Shown here in pieces: positions 51,357 through 58,052 of a stretch of 64,000 nt of DNA. The stretch comes from Elsinoe ampelina (lineage: Eukaryota). The DNA lies in contig ML992505.1 of assembly GCA_010093995.1 (NCBI GenBank), forward strand, positions 1,594,670 through 1,658,669. The letters run 5' to 3'. The number at the start of each line of letters is the position of its first letter. Positions within the stretch are counted from its first letter, which is position 1. The translations under genes and the position numbers were made by a program. The notes under the pieces are model-generated. The model was not told the origin of the DNA. It ran no database searches and saw nothing but the letters and a program-made list of their open reading frames with translations.

Positions 51357-51587
51357 GTTTGGCAGAGTTAGAACTGTAGAAATATCATAATGGCTCTCAG
51401 GATGTCGCGTCAAGTGCCGGATGTTGTTCGCGAGAGAGATGGCCGAACTCGCGCTATGGCCAAGCCGTCAATGGCATCATGCAGAATGTGGGGAAAGCTC
51501 GAGGTCCCCACCGCGGCAACAGTGTCTGTCGAGACTTTCTGTCAACAATATGTGCCAATAACGACTATTGTCGAAGGTCCACACAGC

Positions 51588-53002
51588 ATGTCTGAAGATG
51601 TGCGCAACAATCGTGGTCTCAGGCGACTGGACCTTGGTGAGCAGATCACACCTGAGGAGCCGAAGAAGCGCATCAATGAAGGAGACGATCTTTCATTCTT
51701 CCTTACGTCCAAGGCCTATGTCGATATCGTCACATTTATTGGACAACTGAACCGGTCAATGTTTCCCTTGGCTCAGAGCGATGGGCGGGTTAGGTCATGG
51801 ACAACTCATTCAACTAACATAACTCTTTCACCCGAGGTTGGAAAGATAAAAGAGCTTGTACGGACCCTCAGCACAATACTTGACGAGACGCCGCCAGAGA
51901 CTGGCCCGCGCAGGTTTGGGAATGCTGCCTTTCGAACATGGTACAGGAAAGTGGAAGAGCGGACTCCGGCACTTTTGCAACAGGCTCTCCCGGACCAGAT
52001 CTGGAAGCACTCACAGGATGAGGCGCAGGAGACGCTGCAGAAAGAGTTGGGCGAATACTTCCTTGGTAGCTTTGGAAGTCCAGAGCGACTGGATTACGGC
52101 ACTGGTCACGAGCTCAGCTTTCTCGCATTCTTAGGCGGCATCTGGAAGCTGAATGGCTTTGCGTCGAGTGAAAATGGAGAGCAAGAGCGCAGCATAGTAT
52201 TTGGCATCATTGAGCCGTAAGACTGGGAGTTTGCGATCGGTGAGGGTCCGCTAATCATCACAGATATCTTGTCCTCATCCGTAAGCTGATCCTGGCGTAC
52301 ACTCTTGAACCGGCTGGCTCTCACGGAGTGTGGGGTTTGGACGATCATTCGTTTGCGCCGTATATCCTTGGATCCGCCCAACTATCCCCCGCGGTATCTC
52401 CTGGTTCATTGCCGCCCATGGAAGGTTCTCTGAAAGGTGCGCCTAGACCTGGCGACGTCGTCAAGGAAACAGCCGTCAGGAGACTGAGCGAAGAGAATCT
52501 ATACTTTTCTGCCATAGCTTTCATCTACGATGTCAAGAAAGGACCTTTCTGGGAACACAGTCCGACTCTGTACGACATCTCCGGGATCAAAGCAGGGTGG
52601 GCAAAGATCAACAAAGGTCTGATGAAGATGTATAATGCCGAAGTACTCTCGAAGTTTCCAGTAGTGCAGCACCTACGCTTTGGGTCTTTATTCCGTTGGG
52701 AGACTGACCCTAGCGCCACGCCCACGGCAACTACTGTACACGCAAGAAGCCAACCGCCAGCTACAGGAACGACAAGATTGCCTACCAATCCAGGGAATCC
52801 GAGCAGTACAATGCCGCCCATACCAACTAGTTCTGGCGCTATAGGAACCGCCGCACCATGGGCAAGAGCTCCGCCTCCAAGTAACGGATCCTTTGCAATG
52901 CCAACTATGCCTGCTGGATCTGGAGGAAACTTAAGAGGTCTTCCGTCACAAGCGTCTCAAGATCGAGTTCCTGCCATGAACGGCAATCGAAGACCAGGAT
53001 GA
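51588..53002 (+). CDS. RRD1: PP2A phosphatase activator (PTPA, Rrd1/Ypa1-type); intron 52217-52263
   Basis: [71 protein letters not shown]. Confidence 0.9.
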
Positions 53003-55268: not shown

Positions 55269-55635
55269 GATGCTGCGGTAGGGAAATGAGGATGAACACA
55301 CAGCGATGTGCGATTGAAGAGCAGTTGTAGTGGGCTGCTCGATATCGCACTCGTCAACGGCCGTGATAATGTATACTTACCCAATGACGGCATGGATGGA
55401 CTCTCGACTAGCTACGAGGATGGAATCAGCATTTGAGGTATCATAGCGAATCAAGCTGGTCATGTTTTGTGCCCCATGGGTTCTCAATGTCATTGTGAAG
55501 TGATGTGAAAGTGTCAGATCCCCATGTGTTTTCGAAATTGTGGAGCCCATCTTGGATGAACTGTTCCCACCACCCCCGACATGTCCGCCCTTGGCCACAC
55601 CACCTTGCATTCCTCGTCCGCCCGCCGCCGATTCC

Positions 55636-56851
55636 ATGGCAGATATTGCCCCTCGTCCGGACGAGCCTCACAAACCCCGTCTCGTCATCTACCATCAGAC
55701 TCACCACACCGGTCCTCAAGAATCTCAAAGTCCCGTCTCCATCCTCCCACTGACATCAAACAATACCAGCGTGACCCACATCATCATCGCCGCCGTCCAT
55801 CTCAACGACGGTGATAACTTGACGCTCAACGACGATCCCCCATCGTCTCCCAAGTTTACACAACTATGGGACGAAGTCGCCATTGCCCAAGCCACGGGCA
55901 TCAAAGTCCTCGCCCTCCTCGGCGGTGCAGCAAAGGGTAGTTTCCAACGTCTGTCAGGTGATCAAACCAGTGTACGTCTCCTCCATGCTTCTACCAGCCC
56001 TCTTCCTCTTCCCCCTTCCTTTCCGCCTTTCCTTCCAGCCCCCGGCTCCACCTCCCCATCCTGACCCCCTCAAGTTCAACTTCTACTACTCCCAACTCCA
56101 CACCTTCCTAACCACCCACTCCCTCTCCGGCATCGACCTCGACGTCGAAGAAGAAACCCCCCTCCCCGCCATAATCCGCCTCATCGACCGCCTCCGATCC
56201 GACTTCGGCCCCTCCCCTTCCTTCACCATCACCCTCGCCCCCGTCCTCCCTGCTCTGTTGCCGAACATGCCCCACCTCTCCGGCTTCTCCTACTTTGACC
56301 TCGAGAACCTCCGTCGGGATCGGATTGATTTCTACACCGCCCAGTTGTACTGTGGCTGGGGCGACGCGGGGAGTGCGGAGCATTACCTCTGGGCTATCAG
56401 GAGTGGGTGGGATCCCAGGAGGGTGGTGCTTGGGACGGTGAGTTGTCCGGAGAATGGCAGTGGGTGGGTGGATGTGGGGAGGTTGGGGGAAGTGGTGGGG
56501 GTTTGTAGGAGGGCGACGTGGGGGTGGGGTGGTAGGGGAGGGGAGGCGTTTGGGGGTGTGGCGAGCTGGGAGTATTTCAATGGGTTGCCGGGGGGTGTGG
56601 AGAGACCGTGGGAGTGGGCGGGGAGGATGGGGGCTGTTTTGGGGGAGGTGATAGATGGGGCGGCAGTGGGTTCAGGGTCGCAAGGGCAGGGGCAAGGGCA
56701 GGCACAGATGGAGAGGGCGCAGCATCCTTGGCCGGCGGAGAGTGTGAAGACGTTGGAGGAACTAGGATTTGGGAGGGTGCAGGCTGTGATGGCGCTGAAC
56801 AGGACGGGAGGAAATGTGGAGTATGCTGCTGGACTTCTATTCGACATGTGA
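55636..56851 (+). CDS. GH18 chitinase/endo-beta-N-acetylglucosaminidase-like enzyme with C-terminal UBA domain (exons 55636-55971, 56075-56851)
   Basis: RLVIYHQT, VTHIIIAAVHLN, KVLALLGGAAKGSF, catalytic LSGIDLDVEE, ITLAPV, AQLYCGWG, GGVASWEYFN. Tail SVKTLEELGFGRVQAVMALNRTGGNVEYAAGLLF is UBA-like. No signal peptide. Confidence 0.85.
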
Positions 56852-56960
56852 TCTTGTCGTTCCCTCAGCGCACTGGATCCGCAGTCCGGTAAGTCAATCC
56901 TCTACAGTCTATACTCTATGCTCACGCTGGATGCTTTCTTCCTGTCATACTACATCCGCA

Positions 56961-58052
56961 TCAATACTGATACCCCCCAGGCCTTCCCCTATACCACCCC
57001 TGCCCCGCATAATCCACCTCCGTCCTATCCGGCACCACAACACCATACCTCCCATACCCACCGGACCTATACCCCTCCCTCCTCGGTCTCCACTGCTCCC
57101 TCCCCCTCTCAGCCTCCAACAACCTCAACCTCTCCAGCCTCTCCAGCCTCTCTTCCGTCCTCATCTCCGCCCTCTCCCTCTCCCTCTCCCTCTCCAACCT
57201 CTCAACGCCAGCTCTCTCCCTTTCCCTTTCCCTTTCCCTTTCCCTCTCCCTCTCCCCCTCCCCCTCCCCCTCTCGCCACCTCCCCCCCCCCCCCCCCCTC
57301 CTCCCCCTCCCAAACTCCAGATCCAGATCCCCAAACCCCCTCCCCCACCCTCCCAGCCCCTCCCCCTCATCCTCCACCCTCAGATCCTCCCGCGTCATGA
57401 ACCTCGGCCCGCGGAGCATCCCCGGATAACCAGCGGGAGGGAGGTGCACCTCGACGTTCACATCCTGACTTTGCGCTGCTTGCGCGGAGTGACGGGCGGG
57501 ATTCTTGTTCTTTTTCGGGGATCCGAGGGCGTGGGTCTGGTCGTAGGGGCAGGGGAGGGGGGAGGAGTGAGGAGTCGGGGCGGAGGGGTGGGCGTGCATG
57601 GGCGTGTAGGCCGGGGAGTAGGGAGTGGGGGTTGGCCTGGGGTACGGCTGCGGCGGAGAGGTGTGCTGCGCTCTTTGATACCCTGGAAACGCGTTGGGGT
57701 AGCGCTGTGCGGCGCCTGGAGGGAGGTGGTGGGTTGGGAGGGAGGGGTAGTGCATTTCTGCCGCTTTGGGGTATGAGGGATGGCCTGTCCGGATGAGGTC
57801 GTAGCTGGGGCGGAGGTGGCGGGTTTTTCGACGGCGGATGAGGAAGTACTTTTCCTTGTCCTTTTTCTGTCTGGAGTGGGCGTGGAAGTGGGTGTGCGCG
57901 GAGAGGTCGGTGGAGTTGTGGTAGTGCGTGGTGGTTTGCGGTGCGAGATGGGGCTGGGCGTATTGGTAGACGTAGGGAGGTGAGGGATGATCCGCTGCTG
58001 GAGGGAGATAGTGGTGGTTAGGGGGCTGATAGGAGTAGGGATGGAGTGCCAT
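56961..58052 (-). CDS. Low-complexity Pro/His/Tyr-rich and Arg/Glu-repeat hypothetical protein
   Basis: 363-aa ATG-initiated ORF. It spans homopolymer and hexamer repeats, so the frame is uncertain. Confidence 0.45.
   Translation of the reverse strand: MALHPYSYQPPNHHYLPPAADHPSPPYVYQYAQPHLAPQTTTHYHNSTDLSAHTHFHAHSRQKKDKEKYFLIRRRKTRHLRPSYDLIRTGHPSYPKAAEMHYPSLPTHHLPPGAAQRYPNAFPGYQRAQHTSPPQPYPRPTPTPYSPAYTPMHAHPSAPTPHSSPLPCPYDQTHALGSPKKNKNPARHSAQAAQSQDVNVEVHLPPAGYPGMLRGPRFMTREDLRVEDEGEGLGGWGRGFGDLDLEFGRGRRGGGGGRWREGEGEGERERERERERERERAGVERLERERERERAEMRTEERLERLERLRLLEAERGREQWRPRREGYRSGGYGRYGVVVPDRTEVDYAGQGWYRGRPGGYQY
57170..57310 (+). repeat. Pyrimidine-rich simple repeats (CCCTCT/TTTCCC)n plus a C17 run
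   Basis: Direct reading; encodes (ER)n/(EG)n and poly-Gly on the minus strand. Confidence 0.85.

Follow-up and report, generated by a model that had tools for sequence, protein, structure and literature searches.

A 64,000-nucleotide stretch of the Elsinoe ampelina genome (GenBank assembly GCA_010093995.1, contig ML992505.1, positions 1,594,670 to 1,658,669 of the forward strand; hereafter the window, in whose own numbering all positions are given) contains a two-exon gene whose predicted product joins a glycoside hydrolase family 18 (GH18) barrel, of the kind found in the endo-β-N-acetylglucosaminidase (ENGase) Endo T, to a ubiquitin-associated (UBA) domain at the very end of the polypeptide. 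E. ampelina is a grapevine pathogen and, by taxonomy look-up, a Dothideomycete of the order Myriangiales. We consider it about evenly balanced whether the full mechanism that this architecture suggests is correct, namely that the enzyme is ENGase-like, that the UBA binds ubiquitin, and that this recruits the enzyme to endoplasmic-reticulum-associated degradation (ERAD) substrates. The parts of the gene, with the evidence for each, are the following.

55636..55971, forward strand: exon 1, codons 1-112, encoding the first third of the GH18 barrel (translation, PDB matches and spliced contigs)

55972..56074, forward strand: intron of 103 nt; donor GTACGT, branch sequence CTGAC, acceptor AG (sequence; skipped exactly in contigs)

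56075..56851, forward strand: exon 2, codons 113-370 and the stop, encoding the remaining barrel, the linker and the UBA (translation)

56135..56152, forward strand: catalytic motif DLDVEE, D133-E138 (alignment to 4AC1)

56645..56731, forward strand: predicted flexible linker, residues 303-331, including GSGSQGQGQGQ (pLDDT, the predicted local distance difference test score, of 52-69 in the AlphaFold2 (AF2) model)

56732..56848, forward strand: predicted C-terminal UBA, residues 332-370 (Pfam PF00627, PDB profile matches and AF2)

56762..56770, forward strand: LGF loop L342-G343-F344, of the MGF type (conservation in homologs)

56889..56980, forward strand: intron of 92 nt in the 3′ untranslated region, GTAAGT..CAG, starting 37 nt past the stop (loose contig ends)

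The coding sequence runs on the forward strand from the ATG at 55636 to the TGA at 56849-56851, which is exactly the interval 55636..56851 proposed in an earlier sequence-only reading of this DNA, and there is no upstream in-frame ATG within the open frame ahead of 55636. The spliced product of 370 amino acids is identical at every residue to the database record P0003 ('glycoside hydrolase superfamily [Elsinoe ampelina]'), and unspliced reading of the intron runs into a stop. Four sequencing runs were aligned over 55450-56950, none of them recorded as RNA; we treat runs X1, X2 and X3 as transcript-derived because the intron-less form is present in them, one contig of each (from two studies in all) skipping 55972-56074 exactly. 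The UBA codons and the stop (56665-56889) are covered by contigs of four runs (three studies) with zero differences from the window, and loose ends at 56889 in all four resume with sequence from 56982 onward. The gene is thus expressed and spliced as modelled, and in the transcript-derived contigs the stop comes after the UBA, not before it as in the case that the sequence-only reading had named as a possible undoing of the fusion. The G-rich segment 56461-56563 is bridged by no contig among the four runs, and the contig ends there differ between runs and carry no loose ends; this break is an assembly gap, and nothing is drawn from it. We note that the 435-residue model of the Elsinoe australis ortholog (P0005) still contains the intron, read in frame ('SVRPRLPP...'), and takes an upstream ATG as its start; it looks like a mis-built gene model and not a genuine variant.

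Scanned with the full protein, Pfam recognizes the barrel as Glyco_hydro_18 (PF00704) at 37.8 bits, where the cut-off is 29.6, and the same scan finds no domain beyond GH18 and UBA and no chitin-binding module, the last in keeping with the sequence-only reading. The nearest solved chain is 2Y8V, ChiC of Aspergillus fumigatus ('class III chitinase, putative'), matched at 4e-42 by exon 2 and at 3.6e-27 by exon 1, and the Hypocrea jecorina ENGase Endo T (4AC1) is matched at 1.9e-36 and 6.8e-20, respectively. An AF2 model of the full protein built from 67 homologs (pLDDT 91.0, predicted template modelling score (pTM) 0.86) has eight strand-helix units across residues 15-302, and Foldseek places 2Y8V first, at 46% identity and E 4e-31, and then 4AC1 (40% identity, root-mean-square deviation (rmsd) 1.7 Å, target template modelling score (TMt) 0.94, E 2.4e-30), followed by a bacterial chitinase as the next fold at E 3e-13. 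The 50 Foldseek matches shown are all GH18-type barrels, chitinases or ENGases except for the spore cortex-lytic enzyme SleL.

Alignment with 4AC1 sets GIDLDVEE here opposite GMDLDVEQ of Endo T, and D135, E137 and Y204 opposite D129, E131 and Y195, the last being the Tyr of Endo T's QFY; all three residues are invariant across the 67 homologs. In Endo T, D129 and E131 are reported to be catalytic and Y195 to contact the substrate (PMC3408457). The DxDxE motif, which in this enzyme group ends strand 4 and which the sequence-only reading took to be intact, is present as DLDVEE at residues 133-138, and the first Asp of the longer DxxDxDxE pattern is a Ser in the E. ampelina protein and a Glu in Endo T. 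Placed by its nearest solved relatives in both sequence and predicted structure, the barrel is assigned to GH18 subgroup B-V (B5), the kind of Endo T, to whose ENGase activity the sequence-only reading had also pointed. An insertion relative to both 2Y8V and Endo T, RRATWGWGGRGGEAF, occupies about 56490-56540 (residues about 255-268) and appears as an 8-residue gap in both alignments; it is also found in E. fawcettii and E. australis, and sits in the G-rich stretch where all of the RNA-derived contigs break.

Both by sequence and by predicted fold the tail is a canonical UBA. PF00627 scores 28.3 bits on the full protein (E 1.5e-6), 29.0 for exon 2 and 32.3 when only the last 63 residues are scanned, above a cut-off of 22.4; the Pfam UBA_7 family stays below threshold, at 22.2 bits against 27. 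A single tail sequence matches the UBA of yeast Ddi1 (2MR9) at E 1.9e-5, and a profile made from 11 tails matches, at E≤0.01, 38 different PDB sequences, almost all of them UBA domains, with Ddi1 the best at 4.1e-14 and the others including NUB1, USP13, USP5, Mud1, RAD23B, HUWE1, ubiquilins and E2-25K, along with one odd entry, a designed repeat protein. AF2 models of the full protein and of the tail by itself both place helices at 333-341, 346-355 and 360-369, with helix pLDDT values of 83-89 in the former and 94-96 in the latter (87.8 overall). Foldseek with the tail model gives zero matches at E≤0.001, as is usual for a 50-residue query, and its best matches are UBA domains, 2MR9 (E 0.033, TMt 0.80, 45% identity), 2DAK, 1Z96 (rmsd 0.4) and 2LBC, with the related EF-Ts N-terminal domain also among them. 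The sequence-only reading had described a three-helix signature of about 40 residues after a GQGQGQ linker and had named failure of the tail to score or fold as a UBA as a ground for rejection; both linker and signature were located, and Pfam, the PDB profile and AF2 agree on the domain. UBA domains contact ubiquitin through a patch made of an MGF/MGY-type loop and the hydrophobic residues that end helix 3, and the tail has the LGF loop noted above together with LLF at 366-368, at the end of helix 3.

A crude scan of the first 31 residues found no hydrophobic segment, with a highest 10-residue Kyte-Doolittle mean of −0.33, and the N-terminus does not resemble a signal peptide, as the sequence-only reading had maintained. 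The same holds for the UBA-bearing homologs with a complete N-terminus, none of which (0 of 158) has a signal-peptide-like start; 144 are clearly of the cytosolic type, and the other 14 begin with long leaders that are not hydrophobic and look like gene models extended too far. Secreted-looking starts were found in 91 relatives that do not have a canonical UBA.

The fusion is not peculiar to E. ampelina. A strong UBA match is present in 193 of the 434 family proteins gathered, PF00627 is found at E≤0.01 in 66 of 67 full-length aligned homologs, and it is precomputed in 87 of the 120 homologs listed by a first search. An exhaustive search of cluster representatives yielded 702 relatives at E≤1e-3, with the tail in 22 among the best 150 cluster representatives, and two protein clusters combine GH18 with UBA, of 65 and 145 members, both assigned at phylum level to Ascomycota. 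Named carriers include Elsinoe, Sphaceloma, Myriangium, Zymoseptoria, Cercospora, Ramularia, Aureobasidium, Hortaea, Baudoinia, Alternaria, Pyrenophora, Parastagonospora, Diplodia, Neofusicoccum, Phyllosticta, Mytilinidion, Patellaria, Coniosporium and Bathelium; class was looked up in the taxonomy for Elsinoe, Coniosporium and Bathelium, and we take the remaining recognized names to be Dothideomycetes. On these sequence matches the fusion appears to be class-wide in the Dothideomycetes. The architecture is already visible to automatic annotation, the Diplodia seriata member having the UniRef name 'UBA domain-containing protein'.

The position and sequence of the tail are strongly maintained. 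In all 193 carriers only 0-5 residues follow the UBA, which stands behind a variable linker with a median length of 27 and a maximum of 96 residues. It is also the best-conserved region of the protein, with a majority-residue fraction in the 67-sequence alignment of 0.83, compared to 0.73 in the barrel and 0.43 in the linker. Of the 193 carriers, 186 have the L of the LGF loop, all 193 the G and 191 the F, and the LLF of helix 3 is conserved to a similar degree.

Several records in this collection have unexpected names. The E. fawcettii ortholog is called a 'putative DNA damage-inducible protein' because of its Ddi1-like UBA. Three records labelled Quercus suber (P0085, P0093 and P0299) are typical fungal B-V proteins, the first two of which carry the UBA, and are probably fungal sequence inside a plant assembly. 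Six GH18 proteins (P0069, P0089, P0269, P0382, P0391 and P0406) are named 'Cyclin-dependent kinase catalytic subunit', names that may have come from a gene model next to or fused with theirs, in an arrangement that is conserved; in the window, too, a protein kinase gene lies about 2 kb downstream.

A second type of tail is found on secreted members of the family. A clade of 48 tips (FastTree support 0.985) consists mostly of proteins with classical signal peptides, under the names Claussenomyces (Leotiomycetes), Xylogone, Icmadophila, Orbilia, Dactylellina, Arthrobotrys, Meristemomyces, Zymoseptoria brevis, Rasamsonia and, in one record, Atractiella. In many of these proteins the last 45 residues form a tail whose consensus is 'HPF...L..GA.HFEAVRALNxTxGD..AA..L', and the profile of these tails aligns with that of the cytosolic UBA in hhalign with 99.2% probability (E 2.7e-19, 43 columns). 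The motif 'AVRALNxTxGD' is common to both, and its N-x-T sequon is kept in the secreted tails. At the position of the LGF Phe (profile position 19), the 36 secreted-type tails have A in 26, V in six and F in none, and Pfam UBA was found at E≤0.1 in 0 of the five degenerate-tail proteins scanned (P0152, P0169, P0180, P0232 and P0254). Secreted paralogs with the degenerate tail come from several Pezizomycotina classes and include P0152, P0269-P0275, P0277, P0279-P0284, P0288, P0292 and P0299, and in more derived members of the clade, such as those of Botrytis and Sclerotinia, the tail is gone entirely. By sequence comparison the secreted tail looks like a UBA that has decayed outside the cytosol, which suggests that the fusion predates the split of the Pezizomycotina classes.

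The tree is weak on the order of these events, the backbone nodes that join the UBA clade and the secreted clade having FastTree support of 0.11-0.24. P0131 falls at the base of the secreted clade, a placement that we regard as unreliable because its closest named relatives are Dothideomycete forms with the UBA. We also note that P0152, a record named Atractiella rhizophila (Basidiomycota), lies among the secreted forms of Pezizomycotina and is 54% identical to a protein from Claussenomyces; its placement reflects either gene transfer or contamination of the record.

Other relatives end differently again. Among those of the cytosolic type that have no UBA, the proteins of Aspergillus, Penicillium and Thermoascus (P0323, P0332-P0336, P0340 and P0347) share a conserved helical tail of about 35 residues, 'MKDVV.AARQVL...MMNQ', and an acidic F[DE]Y..[ST]D motif is found at the C-termini of P0126, P0127, P0151 and P0344, with a variant in P0132. 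We considered whether this acidic motif is general among the non-UBA cytosolic relatives and rejected the idea, the other pattern matches being to the catalytic WEYFNS strand. The Hypocreales-like secreted tails (P0352, P0329, P0331 and P0143) match neither UBA profile, and the proposal that the cleaved C-terminal peptide of Endo T is a degenerate UBA was rejected for these forms on that ground. The C-terminus of the B-V family seems to be a swappable targeting region.

The mechanism that we favour would operate as follows. A flexible linker of about 30 residues would tether a cytosolic B-V ENGase-like barrel to the UBA at the extreme C-terminus, which would bind ubiquitin or polyubiquitin. 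The enzyme could in this way be concentrated on ubiquitinated ERAD glycoproteins that have been retro-translocated, or in the ubiquitin-rich neighbourhood of Cdc48 and the proteasome, where glycans would be removed ahead of proteolysis, and one polypeptide would do the job of the yeast pair of Png1 and the UBA-bearing Rad23. We infer the ENGase specificity, the ubiquitin binding and the ERAD role; homology speaks for each of the two halves, and the pattern of conservation speaks for the link between them. The cytosolic forms keep the LGF loop, and A or V stands at the position of its Phe in 32 of the 36 secreted tails, as expected if the hydrophobic patch matters only beside ubiquitin.

A number of observations weigh against this proposal. 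The Pfam detection of the GH18 domain is modest, at the 37.8 bits given above, and the closest solved relative, 2Y8V, is titled a chitinase. The activity and the ubiquitin binding of the UBA-bearing members are predicted from homology, the cytosolic localization from a crude hydropathy scan and not a dedicated predictor, and the presence of both domains on one mRNA from the continuous frame and the homologs, across the unbridged interval 56461-56563. The UBA would not be required for basic function, because cytosolic ENGases that do not have one are reported to work in a yeast ERAD reporter assay. There is no ERAD-related gene among the neighbours of the gene in the window, although this is expected in a eukaryote and is uninformative. 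Finally, the homologous tail on secreted paralogs implies that the module can persist without ubiquitin. The sequence-only reading had linked the tail to ubiquitin, and it holds in so far as a UBA is found on an enzyme without a signal-peptide-like N-terminus; it is complicated by the occurrence of a homologous, degenerate tail on paralogs with signal peptides as well. The retention of the LGF loop in the cytosolic lineage only is nonetheless the pattern that ubiquitin binding predicts.

Most of the remaining probability goes to a different role for a genuine UBA. The same enzyme could use the domain to stabilize itself in cis near the proteasome, or to dock on the ubiquitin-like (UBL) domains of Rad23, Dsk2 or Ddi1 or on NEDD8, and we regard this as fairly unlikely while giving it more weight than the alternatives below. 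The near invariance of the LGF loop and the helix-3 LLF, which form the patch that contacts ubiquitin, argues against such jobs; the inclusion among the best PDB matches of Ddi1 and of UBA domains of NUB1, a NEDD8-related protein, speaks in their favour. Cis stabilization accords with the place of the UBA at the very end of the protein, where no more than 0-5 residues follow it in all 193 carriers, and a C-terminal UBA is reported to protect Rad23 and Dsk2 from proteasomal initiation (PMC3105319). Substrate capture and these other jobs are compatible, and the present data do not separate them.

The homologous tails of the signal-peptide-bearing paralogs raise a further alternative, that the tail is an ancestral accessory module of the B-V family, with a role that has nothing to do with ubiquitin, for example in folding, autoinhibition, or protein or glycan contact, which is UBA-like in looks and was inherited without a targeting function. 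The hhalign match (99.2%, E 2.7e-19, 43 columns) and the 'AVRALNxTxGD' shared by both tail kinds are consistent with it; against it, none of the five degenerate tails reaches Pfam UBA at E≤0.1 and the LGF loop is gone from them, whereas the cytosolic tails match solved ubiquitin-binding UBAs at E values down to 4e-14 and are the best-conserved region of the protein. Because of these matches and this conservation, decay of a true UBA after export fits better than chance resemblance, and we judge the accessory-module explanation to be improbable.

It is more doubtful still that the protein is simply a chitinase or chito-oligosaccharide hydrolase of the cell interior, with a part for instance in the recycling of cell-wall chitin, and not an N-glycan endoglycosidase. 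Many of the orthologs are named 'chitinase' in databases, as is the closest solved structure, ChiC, and subclade B-V is reported not to have been extensively characterized (PMC8042737). However, the only functionally characterized near relatives in the literature consulted are ENGases (Endo T, Eng18B and gh18-10), Endo T has been reported not to be involved in chitin degradation (PMC3408457), the classical chitinase folds match at E 3e-13 or weaker with 11-20% identity compared with 2.4e-30 for Endo T, and Pfam finds no chitin-binding module. That the fusion is an artefact of annotation or assembly, with two separate genes, or with a stop or an intron ahead of the UBA, is close to refuted and deserves hardly any credence: the unbridged segment 56461-56563 and the mis-built P0005, with its retained intron, are set against a frame open from 56075 to 56848, contigs identical to the window on either side of the gap, and the same order of barrel, linker and UBA in 193 homologs from many genera.

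Returning to recruitment by ubiquitin, the distribution of tails allows a broader and more tentative reconstruction, which we think possible and not probable. The GH18-UBA fusion would be ancient, dating at least to the Pezizomycotina crown, and the ancestral B-V ENGase would have been cytosolic and ubiquitin-reading; one lineage would then have gained a signal peptide and lost first the LGF loop and then the tail, Eurotiomycete and other cytosolic lineages would have swapped tails, and the Dothideomycetes alone would have kept a working version that merges the functions of Png1 and Rad23. Should this reconstruction be true, the enzyme would be the first known example of a glycosidase that picks out substrates by a ubiquitin mark.

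Cytosolic GH18 ENGases are themselves already known, and what is new here is cytosolic GH18 ENGase-like enzymes with a UBA. How a GH18 ENGase finds its ERAD substrates is not addressed in those parts of the gh18-10 literature consulted, and the UBA fusion offers a testable answer, recruitment by ubiquitin, for which natural controls are supplied by the paralogs with a homologous tail that lacks LGF and by the sister lineages with unrelated tails. If this answer is right, the protein would be rare among glycoside hydrolases in having a ubiquitin reader to direct it, and would be an independent, single-chain counterpart to Png1-Rad23. The Dothideomycetes include many crop pathogens, and the findings may therefore have a bearing on secretory-stress biology, with the claim itself limited to basic cell biology.

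The surroundings of the gene in the window include the following genes.

51372-53002, forward strand: gene for a phosphotyrosyl phosphatase activator (PTPA), split over two open reading frames

58612-60305, reverse strand: protein kinase gene, about 2 kb downstream of the GH18-UBA gene

The split in the PTPA reading frame is presumably due to a short intron near 52220-52244. Further neighbours are a 2OG-Fe(II) oxygenase, an NADH:flavin oxidoreductase of the old-yellow-enzyme type, and two low-complexity open reading frames without a Pfam match. Downstream of the GH18-UBA gene, at 57140-57330, there is a long tract of low complexity, rich in C and T and including about 14 consecutive C, in which the open reading frames of either strand have no Pfam match.

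The sequence-only reading knew of no characterized GH18-UBA fusion, and a search of the literature, outside of which most subscription journals fell, likewise found no description of a fusion of GH18 or an ENGase with a UBA. The publications that pair ENGase with UBA are, by title, mostly on animal NGLY1 and RAD23, and none is on a fungal GH18-UBA fusion. The words 'UBA' and 'ubiquitin' have 0 occurrences in the main text of the preprint on gh18-10 (10.64898/2026.03.25.714127) and 0 in the main text of a survey of 373 fungal genomes that reports subclade B-V to be little characterized so far (PMC8042737).

The closest functional comparison is with Eng18B of Trichoderma atroviride and gh18-10 of Neurospora crassa. 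Eng18B is described as a protein of 337 amino acids without a signal peptide, in which SMART, InterProScan and CDD detect a single GH18 module (PMC3346758). The gh18-10 protein is reported to be without a signal peptide, to deglycosylate S-alkylated RNase B, and to promote degradation of the RTL ERAD reporter in png1-delta yeast; N. crassa PNG-1 is reported to be inactive, and filamentous ascomycetes to have an inactive cytosolic peptide:N-glycanase (PNGase) and to depend on a GH18 ENGase for deglycosylation in the cytosol (10.64898/2026.03.25.714127). Both enzymes share with the E. ampelina protein the B-V barrel, the absence of a signal peptide, the D-x-D-x-E motif and a predicted cytosolic location, and both have been proposed in this literature as substitutes for the inactive PNGase in the ERAD of filamentous ascomycetes. 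The E. ampelina protein adds the UBA, a distinction that is drawn from the published descriptions of Eng18B and gh18-10, which have tails of about 70 residues. Endo T (Eng18A, 4AC1) is like the E. ampelina protein in its catalytic D, E and Y and in its 40% identity; unlike it, Endo T is reported to be secreted and N-glycosylated and to lose a C-terminal peptide of 43-46 residues on maturation (PMC3408457). ChiC (2Y8V) is the closest solved relative, with a crystallized chain of 290 residues that has no UBA and a function that is not established in the literature consulted.

In Saccharomyces cerevisiae, Png1-Rad23 couples cytosolic deglycosylation to UBA domains that read ubiquitin on ERAD substrates, and does so with two polypeptides joined through the XPC-binding region of Rad23. 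The likeness is one of functional analogy only, with no homology to the GH18 barrel: Png1 is an amidase of the transglutaminase fold that removes the whole glycan, whereas a GH18 ENGase leaves one GlcNAc. The best match of the tail in both sequence and structure is the UBA of yeast Ddi1 (2MR9), with which it has in common the LGF loop and the C-terminal LLF; Ddi1 is a shuttle factor with the order UBL-protease-UBA, and shares only its UBA domain with the E. ampelina protein.

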